The position numbers and the translations under genes were made by a program. A stretch of DNA of 64,000 nt from Patescibacteria group bacterium (GTDB taxonomy: Bacteria; Patescibacteriota; WWE3; 2-01-FULL-39-13), in assembly GCA_048499955.1 (NCBI GenBank), contig JASNYX010000004.1:3249-67248 (forward strand), in the 5' to 3' direction. Under the pieces are notes generated by a model. It made no database searches and was not told where the DNA came from. It saw only the letters and a program-made list of their open reading frames with translations. Numbering within the stretch: position 1 is the stretch's first letter; each line of letters opens with the position of its first letter. Positions 1 through 42,196 of this stretch are shown piece after piece.

Positions 1-551
1 CTGGAGGGCTGAATCAGGCTTGGATTGCTAACGCTTTTGATCCGGCTAGTCTGTCTCTCGATGAGATCGCTTTTATCACCCTTATATTCATGATTCTGTT
101 TGTAATCCTGGCTGTAGTGTTGCTACTTTTTTATATTACCCGCCTTATCACCATCGCTCTTGGTGCTGTGTTATCTCCGTTTATCTTTCTTCTTTGGGCA
201 TTACCAAAATTTGCGGACTTTGCTGAGATTTCCGCCAAAACCTATCTGACTACGATTTTCTCTATCTTGGTACATGTAGTGGTTATTCAGTTGGCAGCCG
301 CTTTCCTAGCATTGCCCGATCAAGTGGGCACCAATTCTTTGATCTCTATTTTGGTAGGCGTTGGACTGCTTCTGACACTACTGAAAACCCAGTCATTTAT
401 GGTTCAGCTCATGTTCTATAACTCTGGCCGGACGCTGGTCAAGAAAATGGGTGGACAAATTATGAATGTGTTCAGCAGTAAACAAAGCGAGGCTGCTCCG
501 GCTTCCAAACCCAGGACGGTTAAGATTCCCAGAAAGGTGGTGGCAGCATGA
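1..551 (+). CDS. VirB6/TrbL-like polytopic membrane protein of a type IV secretion/conjugation module (3' part; ORF runs off the window start)
   Basis: Frame 3 is open from nt 3 to the stop at 551. It encodes several hydrophobic helices (LFVILAVVLLLFYITRLITIALGAVL, IFSILVHVVVIQLAAAFLAL, ILVGVGLLLTLL). It lies immediately upstream of VirB3-like, VirB4 and hydrolase genes with 4-nt overlaps (ATGA). Confidence 0.45.
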   Translation, partial: GGLNQAWIANAFDPASLSLDEIAFITLIFMILFVILAVVLLLFYITRLITIALGAVLSPFIFLLWALPKFADFAEISAKTYLTTIFSILVHVVVIQLAAAFLALPDQVGTNSLISILVGVGLLLTLLKTQSFMVQLMFYNSGRTLVKKMGGQIMNVFSSKQSEAAPASKPRTVKIPRKVVAA

Positions 552-1030
552 GAAGTACTGTGATTCCGGCACAAGTGACAACGGTTGAGGATACTATTGC
601 TGGCAATTTGACTCTAACGCAGATAATTCTGTTGATTATGCCGGTGCTGTTATCAACCGCTGTTTATGCTGTTATGCCGGAACGACTGGTTTTATCCACC
701 TATAAAATTCCCTTGATCGTTATCTTATTTGCCGTATTTGTTGTGCTGGCCTTGCGTATAAAAGGCAGAATTGTCCTGAGCTGGCTTTCGGTTATGGCTA
801 TCTATTATTTCCGTCCACATATCTTTGTATTCAACAAAAACACCATTTACGCAAGGAATATCTTATTGCCACCAGTGAGAAAACCTACGACTGCAAAAGC
901 CAAAGTGACGATTAAGGTTCAAGATGAAGAGAGAAACGACTCATTTGATTACGAATCATTGCTTAGAAACCCCAGTATAAACATCCGCTTTACCAGAAAA
1001 GGATTACTTGTCGTCAAAAACTATGATTAA
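548..1030 (+). CDS. small two-TM membrane protein, VirB3/PrgI-like (conjugation ATPase partner)
   Basis: 160 aa with two adjacent TM helices (LIMPVLLSTAVYAV; IPLIVILFAVFVVLAL). It sits in the position of VirB3/PrgI between the VirB6-like and VirB4 genes and its start overlaps the upstream stop. Confidence 0.4.
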   Translation: MRSTVIPAQVTTVEDTIAGNLTLTQIILLIMPVLLSTAVYAVMPERLVLSTYKIPLIVILFAVFVVLALRIKGRIVLSWLSVMAIYYFRPHIFVFNKNTIYARNILLPPVRKPTTAKAKVTIKVQDEERNDSFDYESLLRNPSINIRFTRKGLLVVKNYD

Positions 1031-1628
1031 CAAAGCTTCATCCCGCCACCAGATTAATATCAAAGAAGTTAAAGATGGAGTACTCATTTTGCCGGGCAAC
1101 AAATACCGGATGATCCTGGAAACTTCCGCCGTCAACTTTGAACTAAAAAGTGAAGATGAACAGGATCAGATTATCGATACCTTCCAAAACTTCTTAAATG
1201 CACTGCCATGCTCGGTGCAGATTTTAATCAGAACCCGTGAGATTGATATCGACGGTTACTTGGCTGATTTTATGTATCACAACAATCACGAGACCAACAA
1301 AATCTATAAGGAACAGTTGAAGGAATACGGGCAGTTTATCAAAAAATTAGTCTCCGGCAACAAAATTTTGACCAGAAAGTTTTATATTGTTATTTCTGAC
1401 TCCAGTGAATCGAGCAAAGTTGATTTTTCTATCATCAAAGAGCAACTCAAGTTGAACCAAGACATTATTATCAAAGGCTTAGAGCGTCTGGGGATGAAAA
1501 CTAGAAAACTTGGCAATCTTGAGATTCTGGACTTGTTTTACAGTTTCTACAATCCATCAAAACTAAAGACTCAACCCTTAACACACAAAACTTTTGAAGC
1601 AATCAACAACCATGCAGATATTCTCTAG
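1008..1628 (+). CDS. virB4: VirB4/TrsE-family N-terminal domain (first part of a VirB4 gene split over two frames)
   Basis: The segment ...IKEVKDGVLILPGNKYRMILETSAVNFELKSEDEQDQIIDTFQNFLNALPCSVQILIRTREIDIDGYL matches the characteristic N-terminal region of Gram-positive VirB4 (TrsE/PrgJ/TcpF type). The ORF ends 35 nt inside the next ORF, which is in frame +1. The combined length of 206+604 aa equals a canonical ~800-aa VirB4. Confidence 0.55.
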   Translation: MSSKTMINKASSRHQINIKEVKDGVLILPGNKYRMILETSAVNFELKSEDEQDQIIDTFQNFLNALPCSVQILIRTREIDIDGYLADFMYHNNHETNKIYKEQLKEYGQFIKKLVSGNKILTRKFYIVISDSSESSKVDFSIIKEQLKLNQDIIIKGLERLGMKTRKLGNLEILDLFYSFYNPSKLKTQPLTHKTFEAINNHADIL

Positions 1629-3408
1629 TCCATACAAAACCATCACTAAAAAATACAAAACCTGGAACAAGAAACGCCGGGATCAAAAGAAACGGATTGA
1701 ACTGGCGTTTGGAGATCAGGATCAAGTCGATCTTATTTCTTACTCCAGCCTCCGCGAAAACTCAGGTTACATTGAGCTGGAAGAGAAGTTTATTCGTACC
1801 ATCTTTGTGTCAGGTTATCCATACATCGCTTCCACCGGCTGGCTCTCGATGCTGACTAATTTCAACCACAATGTTGATATTTCTTACCACATCGAGCAGG
1901 TTGATCCTCTGATGGCTCTGCCTAAACTAACCAGAAAAATCACAGAACTGGAATCAACCAGGCGTACGATGCAGCAGCAAGGGAGAATTATTGGCTCAGA
2001 AATTCTAGATCCGCTTGAGTCTGCCATGAACCTGAAGGACCGGATACTCCGAGGCCAGGAAAAACTATTTCAGGTATCAATTTACGTGACCTTAATTGCG
2101 GATTCATTAAATGAGTTAAATAAAATCACGACACTCCTTGATACCACTCTAGCGACCAAACTTTTCTACACCAAAGTGGCCGGTTTCCAGCAGTTGGAAG
2201 GATTGCAGTCAATTCTCCCTAGAGGTGAAAATCTCCTGGCTCAGAAAAGAAATCTTGACAGTTCTTCCGCCGCCTTAACGTTTCCCTTTACATCCTCTGA
2301 ACTGGTTCAAGAATCAGGAATCCTTTACGGGATCAATAAATCCAACAATTCTCTGGTTATTGTTGACCGATTTTCTTTACACAACGCCAACAGTATTACC
2401 TTTGCACAATCGGGCAGCGGTAAAAGCTATGCAGCCAAGGTGGAGATCTTAAGACAACTAATTCAAAAAACCAAAGTGATTGTGATCGATCCCGAACGGG
2501 AGTATCAGCAGCTTTGCAATAGTCTGGGTGGCACATATATTAAGCTCTCGGCAAGATCCCAGGAGAAAATTAACCCCTTTGACTTCTCACTTAGCAGTAG
2601 TACAGATAGCAACAGTCTGGCCGAGCATATCCAAGATTTAACTGAAGTAATTTCACTGATGGTGGAGGGACTATCTCCTCAGGAAAAAGCGGCACTAGAT
2701 AAAGCGATTATCAAAACCTACAGAGAGTTTGGCTACACTCTCCATGGCAATCACAAACGGGCAAAAGGGTCATATCCGCTTCTTAAAGACTTAAACAAAG
2801 TCCTCAAAGCCGACAAACAAAATACTTTAGCAACACGACTGGAAAAATTCGTCAAAGGATCGCTTTCCAGTGTGTTTGACTCCCAGACCAATATTGAATT
2901 GGATAACCGGCTAATAGTATTTGATATCAAAGATCTGCCGGAGTCGATCAGGCAGATCATGCTGATTATTGTGGCCAACTATGTCTATAACCAGGTCAAG
3001 AAAGAGCCACAGAAACGCCTCCTCGTAATTGATGAAGGCTGGTTGCTACTTGAACATGAAGAAAGTGCCAGGTTTGTCGCCGGGCTTACCAGAAGAGCCA
3101 GAAAATATTATTTAGGGGTCAGCATAATTTCCCAGCAAGCCAACGACTTTCTGAACAATCAGTATGGCCGGGCAATCGCCTCACAGGCTTCGCTTCGAAT
3201 CTTAATGCGGCAGGACACGACAACGATCAAGGATGTGGCTCGAGAATTCAAGCTTAGTGAATATGAGGAAAAGTTTTTGCTTACCAGTGAGCGCGGTGAG
3301 GCAATTATTATTGCCGATCAAAATCATGTGGCGATAAAGATCGTTGCTTCGGAAAAAGAACATCCTCTGATCACCACTGACCCCAAGGAACTATATCAAC
3401 CGTCATGA
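1594..3408 (+). CDS. virB4: VirB4/TraC/CagE-family conjugation ATPase (linker plus C-terminal ATPase domain)
   Basis: Walker A is FAQSGSGKSYAAKV and Walker B is RLLVIDEGWLLL. The upstream linker motif FIRTIFVSGYPYIASTGWLSMLTNFNHNVDISYHI is typical of VirB4. The stop overlaps the next start (ATGA). Confidence 0.8.
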   Translation: MKQSTTMQIFSSPYKTITKKYKTWNKKRRDQKKRIELAFGDQDQVDLISYSSLRENSGYIELEEKFIRTIFVSGYPYIASTGWLSMLTNFNHNVDISYHIEQVDPLMALPKLTRKITELESTRRTMQQQGRIIGSEILDPLESAMNLKDRILRGQEKLFQVSIYVTLIADSLNELNKITTLLDTTLATKLFYTKVAGFQQLEGLQSILPRGENLLAQKRNLDSSSAALTFPFTSSELVQESGILYGINKSNNSLVIVDRFSLHNANSITFAQSGSGKSYAAKVEILRQLIQKTKVIVIDPEREYQQLCNSLGGTYIKLSARSQEKINPFDFSLSSSTDSNSLAEHIQDLTEVISLMVEGLSPQEKAALDKAIIKTYREFGYTLHGNHKRAKGSYPLLKDLNKVLKADKQNTLATRLEKFVKGSLSSVFDSQTNIELDNRLIVFDIKDLPESIRQIMLIIVANYVYNQVKKEPQKRLLVIDEGWLLLEHEESARFVAGLTRRARKYYLGVSIISQQANDFLNNQYGRAIASQASLRILMRQDTTTIKDVAREFKLSEYEEKFLLTSERGEAIIIADQNHVAIKIVASEKEHPLITTDPKELYQPS

Positions 3409-4010
3409 ACTTATTTCTTGCCTGGAATATCTTCTCGTACCGCCGGGAGCTGGCGTATGTAGCTACCGCTTTTTTACTCGTTATTCTGCTTCCGATAATC
3501 GCAGTGAGCGTGCTGACACAGACCGGTATCAATGTTGTCTCTGACACACTGGCAGAGATTAACGAAGTTACCCAAGTAGTAGAGCTGAAAAATCCCTTGG
3601 ATGGTTCGATTTACAAGACCATAGAAGGCCCGTTTGCCTGGCCAACTACGGGAGTAATCACGCTTGAGTTCTCCAAATCAAGCCTTTACCAACTTTTCCA
3701 TACTGGACTTGATATCGCTGGCATGCGGGGTGACCCGATCACTCCTTTTATGGGCGGCAAAGTGATTTATGCAGGCGAAATATCATGGGGCTATGGCAAA
3801 CACGTCGTGATTGATCACGGAGATAACGTAACTTCCATATATGCCCACCTGGACAAAATATATGTTGCTCCGGATCAGGAAGTAGAGCCGAGAAAAGTAA
3901 TCGGGACCGAAGGCAGCACCGGCTGGGCCACCGGCCCACACCTACATTTTGAGACGAGAGTGTTTGGAATACCAGTAAACCCGAGAGTGTTTTTAGGGCA
4001 AGAATTGTGA
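3405..4010 (+). CDS. membrane-anchored M23 (LytM-type) peptidoglycan hydrolase, the cell-wall hydrolase of the T4SS module
   Basis: N-terminal TM helix. M23 motifs HTGLDIA, GKHVVIDHG and GPHLHFE are present. It is translationally coupled to VirB4. Confidence 0.8.
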   Translation: MNLFLAWNIFSYRRELAYVATAFLLVILLPIIAVSVLTQTGINVVSDTLAEINEVTQVVELKNPLDGSIYKTIEGPFAWPTTGVITLEFSKSSLYQLFHTGLDIAGMRGDPITPFMGGKVIYAGEISWGYGKHVVIDHGDNVTSIYAHLDKIYVAPDQEVEPRKVIGTEGSTGWATGPHLHFETRVFGIPVNPRVFLGQEL

Positions 4011-4040
4011 AGTTAGCAGAAGCGAGACAATTGTGTTTAT

Positions 4041-4832
4041 CTAATATTTAGAATGATTAATCAGTGCCGCATCTTTAAGGTATATTGGAGTAATCAATTT
4101 GTCTTCACTTGCTTTTAAAAGAGCAATACTGATATCTTTTGTGCCGCCCGTGTAGTCTGAAATAATTTCATAAGGTTGATAATCTGCTGCTAATTTTGCA
4201 AAAAGGCTTTCTAGTTGACTCTTAATTTCTAGTACCGATTTATCGGTGATTGTTATATTAAAGACCTCAACATGTCGGTCGCTCTTTTCTATTTCAGTCT
4301 TAAAGGTCTCAGCAATTTGCTTTACTTGTGTGGCTTCGGTAACAATTAAAACTACTTTCTCAAGAGAATTGATTGCTGAGTGTCCACCATCGTTGTAGAT
4401 TAACGATTTATAAACGTTATAAGAAGGAATATCTTTAAAATCAGACCGACTATTTGAAACAACCGTTACTAACACCTTCTTTTGATTCAATGGTGTTGGT
4501 GTAAATAAATCTTTATGGATTGATCTTATTCTTATATACACCCAAAGAGGAATACTCGTAAAAAGCAAAACCAATAGAAATAATTGTGTAGCTACTTGCA
4601 TTTCTAAAATTGCTGAAGTGACCAGATATTTAAATAGCTCAAAAAGCGCATTTGTAAGCAATCCGAACGATAAGATAAACAATAGGCTTAGCCACGGGTG
4701 ATTCGTGGAGATGCTGAGAATATTGCGGAGTAAAATACCTTTTTTGGTAAATTCCCGTTGCTGGTTTTCAATAAGATCAAAATTTTCTTTAAATTTGCTC
4801 ATAAAATGGCGTTGTTGGTGATATATCAGCAA
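4041..4832 (-). CDS. CBASS-type effector candidate: 2-TM N-terminus fused to a C-terminal CARF-like Rossmann domain (Cam1-like architecture)
   Basis: Two TM helices (WLSLLFILSFGLLTNALFELF; LFLLVLLFTSIPLWVYIRI). They are followed by an alternating beta/alpha domain: KVLVTVVSNS, VVLIVTEATQVKQIAETF, HVEVFNITI, EIISDYTGGTKD. The last segment fits the CARF signature [DN]x[ST]xxx[RK] after strand 4. This is the last gene of the CD-NTase operon. The likely start is the internal Met (MSKFKE, ~4802). Confidence 0.5.
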   Translation of the reverse strand: MLIYHQQRHFMSKFKENFDLIENQQREFTKKGILLRNILSISTNHPWLSLLFILSFGLLTNALFELFKYLVTSAILEMQVATQLFLLVLLFTSIPLWVYIRIRSIHKDLFTPTPLNQKKVLVTVVSNSRSDFKDIPSYNVYKSLIYNDGGHSAINSLEKVVLIVTEATQVKQIAETFKTEIEKSDRHVEVFNITITDKSVLEIKSQLESLFAKLAADYQPYEIISDYTGGTKDISIALLKASEDKLITPIYLKDAALINHSKY

Positions 4833-5697
4833 TTACCTTGGTTACCGATTCAAAATCTATCTTTTTATCTGGATAGCCAGTAAGAACTATCGCCGGGAAC
4901 ACTTTTTGTGTGAGATCTGAATACGTATATCCATAAGTTAAACCATCATAAGGCACACACATAGCTACTAGTTGATTTATCTGGTCTTCTGTCAACTGCA
5001 AATCATCTAAATATGTTTTAAGTAGGGTGTAACATTGATCTCGTGACGGACGATCAAATTCAAAGGTGACAGCACTTCGCCGTCGAACCGCTGGATCAAT
5101 TGCCGAATGTCTATTCGTGGACATTACGATCATTACCGGTGTTGGTAGGTCCTTCAAAGAGTCAATACCGCGAATGAGTGCATTTACGCCGGCTTTATCT
5201 TCATGGTGCATCTGTGTCACTTCTCTTGATTGTGCCAGAGCATCCGCCTCATCAATAAGTAGAATCAGTGCAGTATTAGTTTTTGCCTGAGAATGAGCCT
5301 CTTTCCGTACAAACTCAAATGAGTCGCTAATTAATTTAGTCATTTCTCCCACAATTCCAGATCCTCTTGCGTTGAGGCTTAACTTATAAAGAACTATCTT
5401 AACTTCTTCAGACCTAGCGATTTGATCTCCAAATGTTTCGGCAAGAGCCGTTTTGCCTGTTCCAACATCTCCAGAAAAAATAAATAAAGGTGGCCTATTT
5501 TTAAAAAGCTTAATAATTGGAATTTCCCTTTTGTAAAATTTTTTTGTCCACTCATCTAAGCCGGATGGGTTGAGTATGATTGATGCCTCTTTAGCTAATC
5601 TATCCTTTATATGGTCTATCCCAACAAGCGACAAATACCTCTCCTGTGCGACGGGATCAGGAAATGCAGTAATATTTTCAAAAGTCTCGCTATTCAT
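4789..5697 (-). CDS. AAA+ ATPase, TRIP13/Pch2-like (CBASS Cap6-like)
   Basis: Single AAA+ module of 302 aa with a ~75-aa N-terminal domain. Walker A is FSGDVGTGKTALAE and Walker B is LLIDEADAL. Sensor/Arg-finger region is MSTNRHSAIDPAVRRR. The size and position after the CD-NTase and a small protein match CBASS type III. Confidence 0.6.
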   Translation of the reverse strand: MNSETFENITAFPDPVAQERYLSLVGIDHIKDRLAKEASIILNPSGLDEWTKKFYKREIPIIKLFKNRPPLFIFSGDVGTGKTALAETFGDQIARSEEVKIVLYKLSLNARGSGIVGEMTKLISDSFEFVRKEAHSQAKTNTALILLIDEADALAQSREVTQMHHEDKAGVNALIRGIDSLKDLPTPVMIVMSTNRHSAIDPAVRRRSAVTFEFDRPSRDQCYTLLKTYLDDLQLTEDQINQLVAMCVPYDGLTYGYTYSDLTQKVFPAIVLTGYPDKKIDFESVTKVIADISPTTPFYEQI

Positions 5698-5698
5698 A

Positions 5699-6217
5699 TC
5701 AGTAACTCCTAAATTGTTGACGGCTCAGTCCGACTCCGTTACGAGAATAAGAATCGTCTGTTGCCCACGTCCCATTTGCCGATCCTGGTTCTGTACCGTT
5801 TGATCGCTTTATTGGTAATAGCTCTTCTACTTGACCTAAATCCTCTCCGCTTAAGCTAGGATTGTGGCGTCTTGTCAAAAAGGAATGCCAAGATGCTCCG
5901 TTAAGGTTTGTAGGAAGATCAATAATGCTAGGCTCATCGTTTGCTGATTCAACTTGCCCAAGGTTATTTACTGAATACCCGATGGCATAAATCCAGTTCC
6001 CGTTCCTCTGATAACCATACTTAACACTTTCCAGTAGACCAAACCTCAATAATATCGCTGCCTCCAGGGCTAAATCCTGAACCTTCTGTGGGGTAAGTTG
6101 GCCGCAATAAACGCGTAATAGGGTTAAGCCATGAGCAATGCGTGAGGCAAGATATTTTGCGTCAGCAATCGTAAATGTTTCCGATAAGCTTCTTGTTTGG
6201 GTATTGCTGTATGTCAT
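5699..6217 (-). CDS. small protein between CD-NTase and the AAA+ gene; HORMA (Cap7)-like by position only
   Basis: The longest ORF starts at 6289 and overlaps the CD-NTase by 68 nt. The internal Met at 6217 starts 4 nt after the CD-NTase stop and gives ~172 aa, a HORMA-like size. No diagnostic motif is recognisable by eye, so the assignment is purely contextual. The C-terminus is low-complexity (G/S/N-rich). Confidence 0.35.
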   Translation of the reverse strand: MTYSNTQTRSLSETFTIADAKYLASRIAHGLTLLRVYCGQLTPQKVQDLALEAAILLRFGLLESVKYGYQRNGNWIYAIGYSVNNLGQVESANDEPSIIDLPTNLNGASWHSFLTRRHNPSLSGEDLGQVEELLPIKRSNGTEPGSANGTWATDDSYSRNGVGLSRQQFRSY

Positions 6218-6221
6218 GCGT

Positions 6222-7235
6222 TTATCCTCTAAAAGTTGACCCCAAAACGGTCCTCCAATTTTCAACTGCTTCTTGTTTTGTTGTGGCATTCATGGCTATA
6301 GCGATCGCATTTAACGCCTTTTTAGCTTCATCAACTATTCTTTGTCGTTGATCCTCCGTATAAGTGCTTGCTATATTATTTTTGGGGTTAACCGGATCAT
6401 ATATCCGAATAATTGCGTTATCTGATTGATCAATTTTGTCTCTACTGTAGTAATCAGCAAAGAATATCGGCTCTTTGAGGCCAGTTCGTACGATATATGA
6501 AAAGAAATTACTTATCGCCTCGGTATAGTTACTAGTGTCCAGACCACTGTCAGCCAAGTGAGAACAGATAAGCTCAATCATCAGCGATTTAAACCTGAAA
6601 TGATCTCCGCGGGTTTTATATTGTTCCTTTATTAGCTTAGCCCAGTATTTTGTGAATCGAACGAATTGTATGTAATGGTCGGGCTGAGTATTTTTTCTTT
6701 TCTGGATAAACTCAAGATGCTGTGAAATACTTGTCAACACTCGCTCGCCATTGCTAGTAACTAAATAACCTTTGTTGTCTGGATCTCCTTCATAAAGGAC
6801 AGGTACAACATCTACATCCATAAGGCCGGGGGTTTTATAGTGAACAGTTACGCAATGATCGTGGGGTTCCAACTGGTTTTCATCAAAATCCGAATAAACC
6901 TCTTTAAGTCGATCTCGTAACCATGCAATAAGGCCACTGTTGTCTGAATCTGGTACAGCAGCAGCTTTAATGTAAATGGCAGTATCAAGATCGTTTAGCT
7001 GACGCAATGCTGAACCTTTTGCAAGACTCCCAGAGTGAAGCATCTTTACTAAATTGTAATCAGGGTGCTCATCAATGTATTTTTTTAACCTATCACGAAG
7101 ACTCTTGACTTGCTCACGATATTTTTTTGCAAGATCTGGGGGGAGGTTGACATGAGTTGTGGCGTAAGCCAATAGCTCTGCGTTAGTAATTGGTTGATCA
7201 ACCGTAAAATCATCAAGGCTATAATTCGTATTCAC
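6222..7235 (-). CDS. cGAS/DncV-like nucleotidyltransferase (CD-NTase, SMODS-type)
   Basis: Pol-beta NTase signature HSGSLAKGSALRQLNDLDTAIYI (GS-x9-DxD) plus a downstream acidic residue in GLMDVDVVPV. A C-terminal helical domain follows, for a total of 337 aa. It is the first gene of an operon with a TRIP13-like ATPase and a sensor-TM effector. Confidence 0.65.
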   Translation of the reverse strand: MNTNYSLDDFTVDQPITNAELLAYATTHVNLPPDLAKKYREQVKSLRDRLKKYIDEHPDYNLVKMLHSGSLAKGSALRQLNDLDTAIYIKAAAVPDSDNSGLIAWLRDRLKEVYSDFDENQLEPHDHCVTVHYKTPGLMDVDVVPVLYEGDPDNKGYLVTSNGERVLTSISQHLEFIQKRKNTQPDHYIQFVRFTKYWAKLIKEQYKTRGDHFRFKSLMIELICSHLADSGLDTSNYTEAISNFFSYIVRTGLKEPIFFADYYSRDKIDQSDNAIIRIYDPVNPKNNIASTYTEDQRQRIVDEAKKALNAIAIAMNATTKQEAVENWRTVLGSTFRG

Positions 7236-7292
7236 ATCATTTAGTGTCTTCTATCTTTGGGAGGGTTAGGGTCATTTGCCGGGGGCACAGTA

Positions 7293-7475
7293 TCACTGTC
7301 TCGAATAGGACCGTTGATGCTGTGGACTCTCCTTCACCACCTGAATTAGATGAAAGTCTTTTGCCTTGGATTCTGCTGCACTTTGAGTAGGAAAATAGCC
7401 AGAGGCACGAGATGCGCCTTCTCGTTTTATCCGGTATCCTTCCTTCCTATTTCCTGAAACATGGTAGTTTGCCAT
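7293..7475 (-). CDS. DUF2188-family small protein
   Basis: MANYHVSGNRKEGYRIKREGASRASGYFPTQSAAESKAKDF resembles the DUF2188 consensus (HV.p...gW.vk.eG..ra...f.tq.eA...A). It lies directly upstream of the CD-NTase on the same strand. Confidence 0.4.
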   Translation of the reverse strand: MANYHVSGNRKEGYRIKREGASRASGYFPTQSAAESKAKDFHLIQVVKESPQHQRSYSRQ

Positions 7476-7503
7476 AATATATTTCCAAGTAATAAACTGT
7501 CAT

Positions 7504-7540
7504 TTGACATTATGGTAACATTACCATAAAATTTATGGTA
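7504..7540 (+). promoter_or_regulatory. sigma70-like promoter of lexA (TTGACA 7504-7509, 17-nt spacer, TAAAAT 7527-7532) overlapped by nested palindromes
   Basis: Read directly from sequence. The -35 and -10 hexamers have an exact 17-nt spacer and lie ~19 nt upstream of the lexA ATG. The spacer contains the inverted repeat TGGTAAcaTTACCA (7513-7526). The -10 is embedded in the 9-1-9 perfect palindrome TACCATAAAaTTTATGGTA (7522-7540). TGTCAtttGACA lies at 7498-7509. Confidence 0.55.
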
Positions 7541-7550
7541 TAGCAATACT

Positions 7551-8153
7551 ATGCTTCCCCAAAAACAAAAAGAAATTCTAGACTTCATCTTAAACTATCA
7601 ACGCACTCACGGACATGGCCCTACGCTCGATGAGATCGCCTCAGGTTTTGGAAGGTCAATCGCCACCATACACCAACATGTTCGCGCATTGAGAGCAAAG
7701 GGCTTTCTTAAGGCCGCTGGTTCCTCAGCCCGCAGTATAGGTGTTTTTGACGCCAGTGAAGAAGTTGAAGAAATCCCATTAATGGGCTACGTATCTGCGG
7801 GAGGTGGACTGGAGAACATAGAAAATCCAGAGCCAATTAAGGTACAAAAAAGTCTTTTATCGCATTCCGGCAATCATTTTGCCTTAGTGGTAAAGGGTAC
7901 ATCCATGATTGATGATGGAATCCTGCCAGACGATATTATTATTGTGAGACACCAGAATCATGCAGACAATGGTGATGTAGTTGTAGCCTTGATAGGTTCG
8001 GAAGAAAATTCTCTAGCAACGGTAAAAAGGTTTTATAATTTAGGCAAAAAAATAGAATTGAGACCCAAAAATCCGACACTACCATCACGGGTCTACGATC
8101 AGGGTGCAGTAGAGATTCGTGGGAAGTTTGTGGGTCTACTGCGACACGGATGA
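7551..8153 (+). CDS. lexA: LexA repressor (wHTH plus S24 peptidase)
   Basis: N-terminal wHTH. S24 catalytic motifs are GTSMIDDGILPDDIIIV (Ser nucleophile) and TVKRF (Lys). It is transcribed divergently from the CD-NTase operon. Confidence 0.8.
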   Translation: MLPQKQKEILDFILNYQRTHGHGPTLDEIASGFGRSIATIHQHVRALRAKGFLKAAGSSARSIGVFDASEEVEEIPLMGYVSAGGGLENIENPEPIKVQKSLLSHSGNHFALVVKGTSMIDDGILPDDIIIVRHQNHADNGDVVVALIGSEENSLATVKRFYNLGKKIELRPKNPTLPSRVYDQGAVEIRGKFVGLLRHG

Positions 8154-8198
8154 AGGCATTTAGAACCTGATTTTGGTACAATTGGAACTGTACCAAAT

Positions 8199-8408
8199 AT
8201 GAGTCCGAAAAGTAATAACCCCAAGAATAAACTAAGAGTAAATCGTCTCAAAGCCAAACTCACACAAAAAGAGCTGGCTGAAAAGCTTGGTGTACACGTA
8301 AATTATTATGCTCGGATTGAGCGTGGAGAAGAAAATCCTTCTTTGGAGACGTTGAAAAAACTAACCAAGATACTCAAGATCAAATCTTCGGATATCCTAT
8401 CCTTCTGA
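8199..8408 (+). CDS. XRE-family helix-turn-helix transcriptional regulator
   Basis: LTQKELAEKLGVHVNYYARIERGEENPSLETLKKLTKIL is a typical Cro/C1-type HTH. It is 69 aa long. Confidence 0.7.
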   Translation: MSPKSNNPKNKLRVNRLKAKLTQKELAEKLGVHVNYYARIERGEENPSLETLKKLTKILKIKSSDILSF

Positions 8409-8651
8409 TTGATTCTCTTTTTCTTTCTGCTTCTTTAAATCTTCGAAAATCTCCAACAGTAGATCGGGGTTGGTATGACCGAGTTCGTGAACTGTGGCTT
8501 GTAAATGCTCCAAGATGGCAATGGCCATCTCTGGGGTGGCATTGTCCGGATCAGTTTTTTTGAGAATATTGAGGACAGTATCAATGTCTTTCTCGTTGAT
8601 TTCGTAGTCTTGAGAACTCTTGTTCATACCAGGCAAGTATATCACGCTCAT
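8397..8651 (-). CDS. hypothetical acidic protein, co-oriented and overlapping with the PLD nuclease gene
   Basis: 84-aa ORF with a 4-nt overlap with the upstream gene. No recognisable motif. Confidence 0.3.
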   Translation of the reverse strand: MSVIYLPGMNKSSQDYEINEKDIDTVLNILKKTDPDNATPEMAIAILEHLQATVHELGHTNPDLLLEIFEDLKKQKEKENQSEG

Positions 8652-9112
8652 AAAAACCTTTCTAAATTAAGAAAATTAAGTGTATCTATCGTGGTTTGCT
8701 CATCATCAATCCGGCGCATGATTTCCCGGCTCCTGGTCTGAGACAGAATGTTCAGACTACCTTCCCATAACACTTTCCGGTCAAGTATCGCCATTTTCCT
8801 ATGATGATTGCCGGTGCAAAGAAGTACCTGCACACCCAATTCTTCAAATCTCTGAATTTCAGCCTCAGATTGGTATTCTAGGGATTCAGAATGTTCTCTA
8901 GGGTCTCGTGTGAGGACATATACTTTTACTCCGCGCTCAATCAGTCTTTCAAATACTGGAAACAATCCTCTCATTCTTTCTGCTGTTATGTATGGACTTT
9001 CAATTACGACTTCGCGCGAAGCGTGAAGTAAATCCTGGACAAACTTCGGGTAGAAAGTAATCTCGTCGTAAAGGGAGGACTTAAACATTGTTGTCCTCCT
9101 CTCCGGATTCAA
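8648..9112 (-). CDS. phospholipase D-family (Nuc-like) nuclease domain protein
   Basis: Single HKD motif HHRKMAILDRKVLWEGSLN (H-x-K-x4-D ... GS.N). It is ~150 aa long, the size of standalone Nuc/BfiI-type PLD nucleases. Confidence 0.6.
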   Translation of the reverse strand: MNPERRTTMFKSSLYDEITFYPKFVQDLLHASREVVIESPYITAERMRGLFPVFERLIERGVKVYVLTRDPREHSESLEYQSEAEIQRFEELGVQVLLCTGNHHRKMAILDRKVLWEGSLNILSQTRSREIMRRIDDEQTTIDTLNFLNLERFL

Positions 9113-9233
9113 TTACACAGACTTTGCCGTTATAATAGGTGAAACCGAGTTCCTTGAGTTTCTCGTAGGTACGAATCAGGCTATCAAATAGCTCTTGGGG
9201 TTCCACCTGAGGGACAGCGGGCTCACCAAAATA

Positions 9234-10004
9234 ATGAATATAAAACGAAAATCTACATCTTGGCAAAACCTTTCACGCTGGTACGACGCAATTGTCGGAA
9301 GCGAAGGTACTTACCTACATCCAACTCTGGTAATCCCGCAGCTGGCTGAAACCCTAAATATAAAACCCGGAAAAACCGTATTGGATATCGGATGCGGAAA
9401 CGGATTTCTTTCAAAATTTATAACTAAAAGCGGGGCGAACTATCATGGAATTGATAGCAGTAGAAGTTTAATTGACAGAGCAAACAGCTTTGATCAAAAA
9501 GGGGCAAGTTACACAGTCGGAGATATCTGTAACGCAAAATCTTTAAAATCATTGAAACCCAAATCATTCGATACAGCACTTTTTATTTTGAGCCTGCAAG
9601 ATATCGATCCCCTAGAAAGGGCCATAATGAATGCTTCCCAACTTTTAAAGGACAGGTCTGAAATAATAATATTTATGCTACATCCGGCATTTAAAACTCC
9701 AAGACAAACCGGTTTCGTGTTTGATGAAAACCGAAAAATGATTTCGAGAAGAATCGATAGTTACTTAAGCCCTAACCATATTCCCTTCAAAAAAGATAAA
9801 AGAAATAGAAGTTATGTAGCCAATTTCTATCACCGCCCATTACAAGATTATATAAATACTTTATCAACTCATGGATTTGACACCAAGCATCTATCCGAAA
9901 TGCCTGCTTACTCCGAAAAAATCGATCAAAGCAGAATCGAAAAAAGAATATTAAATGAAATTCCGATGTTTATGATGATAAAAGCTGTTAGATCAAACCC
10001 ATAA
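9234..10004 (+). CDS. class I SAM-dependent methyltransferase
   Basis: Motif I VLDIGCGNGFLSKFI. The start is chosen at the ATG at 9234 (MNIKRK); the longer track ORF starts at 9195. Confidence 0.65.
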   Translation: MNIKRKSTSWQNLSRWYDAIVGSEGTYLHPTLVIPQLAETLNIKPGKTVLDIGCGNGFLSKFITKSGANYHGIDSSRSLIDRANSFDQKGASYTVGDICNAKSLKSLKPKSFDTALFILSLQDIDPLERAIMNASQLLKDRSEIIIFMLHPAFKTPRQTGFVFDENRKMISRRIDSYLSPNHIPFKKDKRNRSYVANFYHRPLQDYINTLSTHGFDTKHLSEMPAYSEKIDQSRIEKRILNEIPMFMMIKAVRSNP

Positions 10005-41222: not shown

Positions 41223-42196
41223 TCGTCTAATTTAGGCTTTATATTTTCACCGCGAAAGAAATCAGAAATTATTTCTTCAACCTCACTATATTTGTGTGTT
41301 TTCATTAACTGATCTTTTAGTTTCCCTGCATTTCTAATACCTTTTACATAGATTTTGAAAAACCTTTTCATTTCTGCGAAATTATGCCGTCCATACCAAA
41401 AATCTTCATATAATTTGGTATGCACTAATAAAGTTTGAATCAAATCTTCTGTTGTGGGTTGTTTATTATGATTAAAGAAAAACGGATTTGAAAAAATACC
41501 TCTACCTACCATTAGACCATCAACTTTATATACACTATGTTTTTCCAAACCGTCTTCGTAGCTTAAGATGTCACCATTACCGATGAATACTATATCCGGG
41601 CTTATCGTATTTCGATACTCGACACACCTGCCGATTTCATCCCAATCTGCCGGAACATCTGATAACTCCTTGGCTGTCCTTGCATGCACAGTCAAAGCTT
41701 GTATATCTTTACTTAAAAGAAATGGAATCCACTCTTCCGTTACACGAGACTTAACTCCAAGTCGAGTTTTTATACTCAATGGAATATCCGGAACTGATTC
41801 CCGAACGGCCGAAATAAGTTCAGCAACTAAGTTTGGGTTATCAATAAGTGCTGCACCTGAACCACCTTTCATCACAGATTTATCGGGACAGCCTAAATTA
41901 ATATCAATGCCATCAACTCCTTGATCCGCAGCAATCCTTGCTGCTGAAAAAAAATGTTCCGGTTTTGTTCCCCAAATTTGAGCTACAAGCGGACGTTGAT
42001 TTTCAGAAAAATAAAATCGGGTAATTGCGTTGTCGTATCCCTTTGAGTTCAACGCATCGGTATTAGTGAATTCAGTAAATAGGACATCCGGTTTACCTAT
42101 CTGGCTGATAATCTCGCGAAACACATAATCAGTAACACCTTCCATAGGAGCCAACACAAAAAATGGTTTCGGTAAACTCTTCCAGAAATTTTTCAT
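41219..42196 (-). CDS. dus: tRNA-dihydrouridine synthase
   Basis: VLAPMEGVTDYVFR and DINLGCPDKSVMKGGSGAAL. Confidence 0.85.
   Translation of the reverse strand: MKNFWKSLPKPFFVLAPMEGVTDYVFREIISQIGKPDVLFTEFTNTDALNSKGYDNAITRFYFSENQRPLVAQIWGTKPEHFFSAARIAADQGVDGIDINLGCPDKSVMKGGSGAALIDNPNLVAELISAVRESVPDIPLSIKTRLGVKSRVTEEWIPFLLSKDIQALTVHARTAKELSDVPADWDEIGRCVEYRNTISPDIVFIGNGDILSYEDGLEKHSVYKVDGLMVGRGIFSNPFFFNHNKQPTTEDLIQTLLVHTKLYEDFWYGRHNFAEMKRFFKIYVKGIRNAGKLKDQLMKTHKYSEVEEIISDFFRGENIKPKLDD

Follow-up and report, generated by a model that had tools for sequence, protein, structure and literature searches.

What controls a phage defense operon that is transcribed back to back with lexA, the gene for the SOS repressor? 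We examined this question in a 64-kb stretch of DNA from a Patescibacteria group bacterium (the window, to which all positions refer unless a related locus is named), in which lexA and the first gene of a cyclic oligonucleotide-based antiphage signaling system (CBASS) operon diverge from a 75-bp intergenic region. An initial annotation, made from the sequence alone, placed a lexA promoter and several palindromes in this region and proposed that the defense operon might be under SOS control. The anatomy of the promoter region, its conservation, the turnover of the gene cassettes beside it, and the breakpoint at which they change were read from the sequence and from comparison with related loci. 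Together they suggest that a LexA-repressed two-way promoter drives exchangeable defense cassettes and makes immunity SOS inducible, a reading to which we assign a probability of roughly 0.6. The following features of the region bear on it.

7551 to 8153, forward strand: lexA, encoding 200 amino acids with a winged-helix DNA-binding domain and an S24 self-cleaving peptidase domain.
7504 to 7532, forward strand: lexA promoter, with the -35 hexamer TTGACA at 7504-7509, a 17-nt spacer, and the -10 hexamer TAAAAT at 7527-7532.
7522 to 7540: perfect 9-1-9 palindrome TACCATAAAaTTTATGGTA, the candidate LexA operator, with the core TACC-N11-GGTA.
7510 to 7529: perfect 9-2-9 palindrome TTATGGTAAcaTTACCATAA, with arms TTATGGTAA and TTACCATAA.
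7498 to 7509: palindrome TGTCAtttGACA, overlapping the lexA -35 hexamer.
7518 to 7546, reverse strand: putative promoter of the divergent operon, with the -35 hexamer TTGCTA at 7546-7541, a 17-nt spacer, and the -10 hexamer TAATGT at 7523-7518.

When positions 7476 to 7550 were read again, all of the promoter and palindrome features lay where the initial annotation had placed them. The lexA promoter, TTGACA(7504)-N17-TAAAAT(7527), matched 11 of 12 consensus positions and was the top match of a promoter scan across 3900-9300; the lexA ATG at 7551 was located 18 nt past its -10 hexamer. The inverted repeat TGGTAAcaTTACCA, which had been noticed in the promoter spacer, was confirmed and grew into the perfect 9-2-9 palindrome at 7510-7529. 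As had been claimed, the 9-1-9 palindrome extended over the lexA -10 and the site where transcription probably starts; it also occupied the spacer of the opposite-strand promoter. The palindromes consisted of one half-site, TTATGGTA(A), repeated three times, with forward copies at 7510 and 7533 and a reverse copy at 7521. Specifically, the 9-2-9 palindrome was made up of the upstream half-site (GGTA at 7514-7517) and the middle half-site, which is common to both palindromes, and the opposite-strand -10 sat between its arms. Each long palindrome occurred once in the window, even when three mismatches were allowed, and the shuffled-sequence expectation was 0.05 to 0.08 matches (0.08 for the 9-1-9 palindrome). 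The half-site 9-mer by itself was no commoner in the window than expected by chance. The remark that the palindromes match neither the E. coli CTGT-N8-ACAG nor the Firmicute GAAC-N4-GTTC consensus was borne out, since neither of these, nor the GTTC-N7-GTTC direct repeat, was found in 7476-7550. A possible fourth half-site, TTGCCATAA at 7469-7477, was rejected: read on the other strand, it spells the Met-Ala-Asn codons of DUF2188 (the gene that leads the divergent operon), and it breaks the invariant TACC.

Orthologous lexA loci (65 to 95% identity; numbered below with the prefix L) were gathered by searching collections of genomes and metagenomes and by looking up exact protein matches, and the footprint set comprised 30 distinct lexA promoters that gave a gap-free alignment between the -35 and the middle half-site. 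The -35 TTGnnn was present in 29 of these promoters and the lexA -10 TAnnnT in 28. TACC was located directly 5' of the lexA -10 in 29, and the downstream GGTA was found in 27, with a TACC-GGTA spacing of N11 in 22, N10 in 4, and N12 in 1. The arm consensus of this core was ATACCWTAW. The core was kept regardless of the genes flanking lexA, as would be expected of an autoregulatory operator.

The upstream GGTA (7514-7517) was kept only in nearer relatives (the window, L001 to L004, L083, L093, and L099) and was degenerate elsewhere. The palindrome TGTCAtttGACA was present at 7498-7509, but it was not conserved beyond L001 and L002 in the alignment of the 30 promoters; we rejected it as a functional element on this basis, and it is probably due to chance or is merely the -35 itself. 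Because the upstream half-site was confined to nearer relatives and TGTCAtttGACA was not conserved, we took TACC-N11-GGTA as the conserved object, of which the perfect 9-1-9 and 9-2-9 palindromes of the window are local elaborations. Thus, among the palindromes initially put forward as candidate LexA boxes, the one at 7522-7540 stands on a core conserved in 27 to 29 of 30 promoters, and the other two do not share this conservation.

The same 75 bp had also been expected to hold the promoter of the divergent operon, and comparison supported this idea, placing the putative promoter within the same ~50 bp as that of lexA. On the minus strand, TTGnnn was present in 27 of 30 promoters, 17 to 18 nt upstream of a TAnnnT -10 (24 of 30; mostly TATATT or TATCTT), and TGn preceded this -10 in 22 of 30. 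In the promoters with N10 spacing, the leftward TTG was shifted outward, so that the leftward promoter spacing was maintained. In the window, TGG preceded the leftward -10 TAATGT, the rightward and leftward -10 hexamers were 3 bp apart, and the two promoters overlapped within ~50 bp. The TACC-N11-GGTA core (7522-7540) covered the rightward -10 and start site, as well as the leftward spacer and the edge of the leftward -10. An alternative leftward promoter, ATGACA-N16-TATATT (7503-7476; 10 of 12 positions), was rejected because its -10 directly adjoins the start codon and because neither L003 nor L004 conserves it.

This overlap raised the possibility that the palindromes are mainly a geometric by-product of divergent σ70 promoters, in which case LexA would bind elsewhere or weakly, and the cassette would be constitutive or regulated by promoter competition. 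The TA of TACC forms the first two bases of the leftward -10, CCA reads as its TGG on the minus strand (the extended -10 element seen in 22 of 30 promoters), and the ATAA after TACC begins the lexA -10; part of the palindrome symmetry stems from the two overlapping promoters. However, promoter constraints alone were insufficient to account for the repeat, because the GG of the middle half-site was invariant, even in the 8 of 30 promoters in which the T of TGn was lost, and because the right-hand GGTA, present in 27 of 30, falls in a spacer or start-site region where neither promoter has a consensus requirement. The second G never varied, even though TGn leaves this position ("n") free. In addition, the upstream and right-hand half-sites both read TWAWGGTA, like the LexA-box repeats located at the same position in sister clades, and no other conserved promoter element could act as a LexA box. 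We therefore consider the by-product explanation unlikely.

The leftward promoter would serve the following five genes.

7241 to 7475, reverse strand: DUF2188, the first gene of the divergent operon, with an open frame only from 7293 to 7475 (60 amino acids).
6222 to 7235, reverse strand: CD-NTase, the CBASS cyclase (PADLOC Cyclase PDLC00808, 5.4e-114; Pfam SMODS).
5699 to 6217, reverse strand: bacterial HORMA protein, 172 amino acids from the ATG at 6217 (bacHORMA_1, 1.6e-29; PADLOC HORMA, 2.4e-36).
4789 to 5697, reverse strand: TRIP13-like AAA+ ATPase (PADLOC TRIP13, 4.4e-116; Pfam AAA).
4041 to 4832, reverse strand: effector with two transmembrane helices and a CARF-like sensor (PADLOC "CARF, 2 TMs," 9.5e-18; CARF_Card1, 1e-06).

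With a CD-NTase, a HORMA protein, a TRIP13-like ATPase, and an effector in one operon, the window contains a complete type III CBASS. The call of the HORMA gene was supported in L176, and its translation was checked. DUF2188 (Pfam, 1.7e-08; PADLOC candidate PDC-S16, 8e-08) was broken in the window by a 1-nt and a 4-nt deletion, as judged by alignment with L001 and L003, and an intact 79-amino-acid version was present at the same locus in the conspecific contigs L176 to L179. Either the gene is a pseudogene specific to this strain or the assembly is in error here. In L001 and L176, CD-NTase starts 5 nt past the DUF2188 stop, and in intact relatives the gaps between the CBASS genes behind DUF2188 do not exceed 5 nt. 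Because the conspecific contigs have an intact DUF2188 followed after 5 nt by the cyclase and then by tightly packed genes, we read the five genes from DUF2188 to the effector as a single predicted transcription unit whose start lies in the 75-bp intergenic region. The scan of 3900-9300 predicted no promoter inside the operon.

When the same position was examined in related loci, the divergent unit was a recognizable immune system in 19 of the 23 informative loci. The slot contents were as follows.

Type III CBASS: window, L001, and L003.
CD-NTase with Cap15: L004 and L093.
Patatin with CD-NTase: L083 and L098.
Other SMODS/AGS-C cyclase systems: L010, L087, L088, and L097.
ThsB-TIR with caspase: L002 and L081.
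Thoeris (ThsB-ThsA-ThsB): L102.
TIR-like: L008.
Multiubiquitin/E2/E1, Bub, and Bil systems: L005, L009/L109, L089, and L085.
Function unassigned: L006, L007, L099, and L105.

Every cassette was transcribed away from lexA, and its first gene was typically ~60 to 140 nt from the lexA ATG. DUF2188, a PADLOC defense-candidate family, often led unrelated cassettes and was missing from about half of the loci. Six loci shared a common frame, in which type IV secretion system (T4SS) pilin/TrbL, TraC-like, VirB4, and M23 peptidase genes were located on one side of the slot and lexA, an XRE-family gene, and a PLD nuclease gene on the other. Restriction-modification or methylase genes often began 0 to 20 nt past the lexA stop, and with so short a gap they would be cotranscribed with lexA. 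In some slots (L006, L099, and L105), the genes had no recognized defense domain and encoded a 105-amino-acid protein together with GIY-YIG, MBL-fold proteins, and a PD-(D/E)XK protein; these genes are candidates for undescribed defense systems.

Two comparisons indicated how cassettes are exchanged. In the case of L003, the CBASS proteins were 90 to 93% identical to those of the window, whereas LexA and the flanking proteins were 52 to 82% identical; near-identity between 4041-7300 of the window and 6484-9800 of L003 began in the conserved 3' end of DUF2188 (DSDTVPP..DP.PP.D). Near-identical CBASS genes amid diverged flanks pointed to a recent exchange of the cassette by homologous recombination. 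In the case of L087 and L088, the LexA proteins were identical and the divergent cassettes were unrelated, and DNA homology between the two loci (7600-8000 of L087 and 2560-2965 of L088) began exactly at the -35 hexamer. Thus, the two-way promoter core belongs to the lexA side, and the cassettes were inserted just past the leftward start. The identical genes downstream in these two loci encoded a 257-amino-acid protein, a ParB-methylase, a terminase, an XRE protein, and a serine recombinase.

A broader version of this idea is that the lexA promoter acts as a plug-in expression site: a LexA-repressed promoter would be fixed in the chromosome, and diverse abortive-infection cassettes (CBASS types I to III, Thoeris, TIR-caspase, and Bil/Bub) would be swapped in by recombination immediately past the leftward start site. 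We hold this version tentatively and place it a little below even odds.

Which protein would occupy the conserved site? The product of lexA was a canonical LexA, as the initial annotation had called it. It matched Pfam LexA_DNA_bind (PF01726, 2.3e-10) and Peptidase_S24 (PF00717, 3.6e-25), scored 156.7 bits against the TIGR00498 lexA equivalog (cutoff, 110.95), and matched the solved LexA structures 3k2z and 1jhh over its full length, aligning from residue 2. The A83-G84 cleavage site, S118 (GTSM), and K159 were invariant in 24 relatives; the recognition helix was PTIHQHV. Going by the source names of its closest homologs, it belongs to the Microgenomates/Gottesmanbacteria branch of the candidate phyla radiation (CPR).

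Downstream of lexA on the same strand is a second regulatory gene.

8199 to 8408, forward strand: XRE-family helix-turn-helix gene (Pfam HTH_3, 3e-17).

Its product matched HTH_VI, control protein, and, weakly, capH (6.6e-09) in PADLOC. The initial annotation had described lexA and the XRE gene as jointly divergent from the CBASS operon; this held for lexA, and the XRE gene, being downstream of lexA, is not itself divergent. This gene, with its weak CapH and C-protein similarity, and DUF2188, a conserved first gene of unassigned function, invite the explanation that the palindrome is the operator of the XRE protein, of DUF2188, or of an unlinked factor rather than of LexA. The candidate site accompanied lexA in every locus, including loci without XRE and DUF2188. 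The XRE gene was found only in loci that share the T4SS-like frame and was absent from most of the site-keeping loci (L002, L004 to L010, L083, L085, and L087); since it was present in only a subset of loci, it cannot explain the conserved site. DUF2188 was absent from L005, L009, L081, L083, L085, L088, and L089. Because both were missing from many site-bearing loci, LexA was the only constant candidate binder. In addition, the XRE gene had a distinct inverted repeat of its own, TTTGGTACAATT/AACTGTACCAAA at 8172-8197 (12-nt arms, 92% complementary), which ended 2 nt before its start codon and may be the operator of the XRE protein. A terminator at this position was rejected because the RNA fold was not significant (z = -1.4) and there was no T-tract. 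L003 had a different repeat at the position upstream of XRE, and L081 had none. We regard a regulator other than LexA as very improbable.

Repeats in more distant lexA promoters also point to LexA. The lexA genes of distant Patescibacteria have TTCGGTA-type direct repeats at the corresponding place in the promoter, and only about one base distinguishes the half-site TWAGGTA from these. In locus L019, the lexA promoter (9949-9967 of that locus) contained TTTCTATT-N3-TTTCTATT, with the repeat unit TTTCTAT, and the recA leader (~6725-6790) contained four to five tandem TTTCTAA units. These repeats are probably the LexA box of that Parcubacteria-like lineage, and their recurrence upstream of recA supports the idea that promoter-embedded repeats serve as LexA boxes in this phylum. 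We infer that LexA of the studied clade binds TACC-N11-GGTA, and the locus may belong to an SOS regulon.

In the mechanism that we propose, a LexA dimer on the TACC-N11-GGTA palindrome would exclude RNA polymerase from both promoters, and a second dimer might perhaps use the upstream half-site at 7510-7518. Occupancy would autoregulate lexA and keep the toxic defense operon low. DNA damage or phage replication intermediates would activate RecA, and activated RecA would promote LexA self-cleavage at A83-G84. Both promoters would then be released, and the CD-NTase, HORMA, TRIP13, and effector proteins would accumulate.

Several observations weigh against this mechanism. The repeat doubles in part as the leftward extended -10, and its conservation would to that extent not be independent evidence of an operator. 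The window's own leftward -10 was poor (TAATGT, 3 of 6 positions), and the frameshift in the window's DUF2188 could lower downstream translation through polarity. The arm spacing varied (N10 in 4 and N12 in 1 of 27 promoters), which is unusual for LexA boxes and fits the by-product explanation as well. Furthermore, searches for exact TACC-N11-GGTA, for a symmetric half-site matrix with N10 to N12 spacing, and for half-site clusters in any arrangement gave no second operator in the window and the related loci, ~300 kb of clade sequence that did not include recA, uvrA, or uvrB of this clade. With the arm matrix, the candidate operator was the sole site of at least 14 bits in the window and ~240 kb of clade loci. 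Thus, further copies, for which the initial annotation had proposed to search, did not appear in this sequence, and the motif was not linked to a wider SOS regulon; the by-product explanation also draws on this result. The only other half-site cluster, an inverted pair at 41393-41421, ATACCAAAA...ATTTGGTAT (ATACC-N19-GGTAT), was judged to be due to chance, as its spacing is wrong and it falls within the coding sequence of dusB. None of the 20 large window open reading frames that were annotated was a classical SOS gene, and no candidate operator was located near xseA (exonuclease VII) in the window. A tblastn search of the window and all loci with E. coli RecA gave a match only in L019, which belongs to another clade.

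An operator confined to lexA in ~300 kb of clade sequence would also be expected if this LexA were a dedicated, self-cleaving local repressor of a defense island or mobile element, similar to CI or SetR, and a separate uvrB-linked LexA ran the SOS response. The location of lexA fits this alternative, with defense-like genes on one side and, on the other, a T4SS-like cluster that encodes a CD1110-family VirB4, a TraC-like protein, and an M23 peptidase. The serine recombinases or terminase nearby in some loci fit it as well. The sister Microgenomates keep lexA beside uvrB-uvrA, and the studied clade does not. In contrast, no assembly contributed two loci to the genome set, which consisted of the best 80 of 295 matches, and no second lexA gene was found within any collected locus; both results argue against a second LexA. 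Several loci had housekeeping flanks (trigger factor, FtsA, and Cys-tRNA ligase), and the window past ~13 kb was ordinary chromosome (Tgt, TypA, GltX, MiaB, DusB, and XseA). No LexA relative was found on viral contigs, and the 65 to 75% identity of LexA across unrelated cassettes suggested vertical descent. For these reasons, a purely local repressor seems doubtful to us.

The sister clades also provided a precedent for such an arrangement. In 40 sister-clade loci (L022 to L080; distant Microgenomates LexA, 36 to 41% identity), lexA was divergent from uvrB, with uvrA detected as well in 32 of them. About 40 to 60 bp separated the two start codons, with TTCGG-type direct repeats inside (e.g., L056, 4998-10600). 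This pairing suggests that a control region common to LexA and a damage-inducible operon is the norm in the phylum and that, in the studied clade, the divergent partner of lexA has apparently become a defense slot. An intermediate clade (42 to 47% identity) was mixed, with prokaryotic Argonaute and a DpnII-type nuclease, Eco57I-type restriction-modification, SMODS, and AbiEii, as well as housekeeping genes. In L011 (6614-9888; LexA, 46% identity), for example, a Piwi-domain (prokaryotic Argonaute) gene and a DpnII/MboI-type nuclease gene were divergent from lexA.

DNA damage-responsive regulators beside CBASS and other immune operons have been described, namely CapW, CapH/CapP, and CapK/CapS (10.1101/2022.04.27.489752; PMC11662680; PMC13373217). 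As in those systems, the repressor gene adjoins the immune operon across a short common control region, and one type of regulator serves many unrelated immune systems. The Cap regulators derepress upon DNA damage or in response to single-stranded DNA, and we propose the same logic here, exerted by the host's own LexA. They are a WYL protein, a helix-turn-helix and metallopeptidase pair, or a kinase and repressor pair; the lexA locus has none of these and instead encodes a single-chain canonical LexA (winged helix and S24 serine peptidase) that would be RecA dependent by homology. Specifically, a CapH/CapP pair was not found, as the XRE protein matched capH at only 6.6e-09 and no CapP-like metallopeptidase was detected among the neighbors scanned with Pfam and PADLOC; likewise, no WYL domain, as in CapW/BrxR (wHTH-WYL-WCX), was present in the genes from 3405 to 10004. 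The CapH/CapP and CapK/CapS papers contain no mention of LexA.

The candidate box can also be compared with classical LexA sites. The E. coli SOS box is TACTGTATATATATACAGTA. The candidate resembles it in being an AT-rich palindrome of 19 to 20 bp with TAC...GTA ends that lies over the lexA -10; it differs in the inner arm (CCAT/ATGG rather than CTGT/ACAG) and in its length of 19 bp rather than 20 bp, and the recognition helix of the window LexA, PTIHQHV, is a further difference. The LexA-DNA structure 3jso was among the structure matches of the window LexA. Nor is the candidate TACC-N11-GGTA the same as the TTCGG direct repeats seen in the sister clades. In B. subtilis, lexA/yneA is a classical case of an autoregulated lexA with a divergent SOS operon. 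Like that pair and the sister-clade lexA/uvrB-uvrA, the window genes diverge from a single short region with LexA boxes (a candidate box in the window). Unlike them, the partner is an exchangeable antiphage cassette, not a repair or cell division gene.

Defense hotspots with conserved flanks are likewise familiar, and the SOS-responsive SetR controls SXT elements that carry a defense hotspot. The locus shares with these a fixed slot (between the M23 peptidase and T4SS-like cluster and lexA), varying systems, and an S24-type repressor nearby. It differs in that the slot is joined directly to the promoter of the repressor, with the breakpoint at the -35, and in that the cassettes bring no promoter of their own. 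In the literature on LexA with CBASS, Thoeris, defense islands, or CPR defense, we did not find this arrangement described; a 2017 study of the Patescibacteria SOS network lies outside this comparison. That study, by Sanchez-Osuna, Barbe, and Erill (Environ Microbiol 19:3465; cited in PMC8565304), dealt with the same superphylum and reportedly derived LexA motifs by comparative genomics. Thus, damage-responsive control of immunity is known, and the apparent novelty is the proposed use of a canonical LexA, with a candidate box not listed before, as a fixed docking promoter.

The remaining neighbors in the window were as follows. The T4SS-like cluster occupied 1-4010. In six loci it bounded the slot on the left as a conserved flank, and relatives had T4SS pilin/TrbL genes beyond it on that side. 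It may belong to the host or be the remnant of an integrative element. Past the XRE gene (8397-10004) came a convergent 84-amino-acid gene and a PLD-family nuclease gene (PADLOC MkoC/DrmC-like), followed by a methyltransferase-like gene with a PADLOC mad2 match. The trio of XRE, small open reading frame, and PLD genes was kept in L081, L089, L093, and L176.

How toxic abortive-infection systems are silenced and then induced is an active question. If the proposed mechanism is true, the classical SOS repressor would be a fourth solution beside CapW, CapH/CapP, and CapK/CapS, and a regulated promoter would serve as a fixed docking site for interchangeable defense cassettes. If the promoter is indeed a plug-in expression site, RecA/LexA would induce much of the accessory immune repertoire. 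The locus would also provide a candidate LexA box for an uncultured lineage, and the gene divergent from this lexA clade would be a simple genomic marker for new defense systems, as 4 of 23 slots are unassigned. A high density of defense systems has been reported in CPR bacteria (PMC12259885), and the locus would offer a way to test whether their SOS response and immunity are connected. LexA may here have exchanged the control of repair genes (uvrBA in sister clades) for that of defense, and phage defense is probably switched on by DNA damage in this group of ultrasmall groundwater bacteria.

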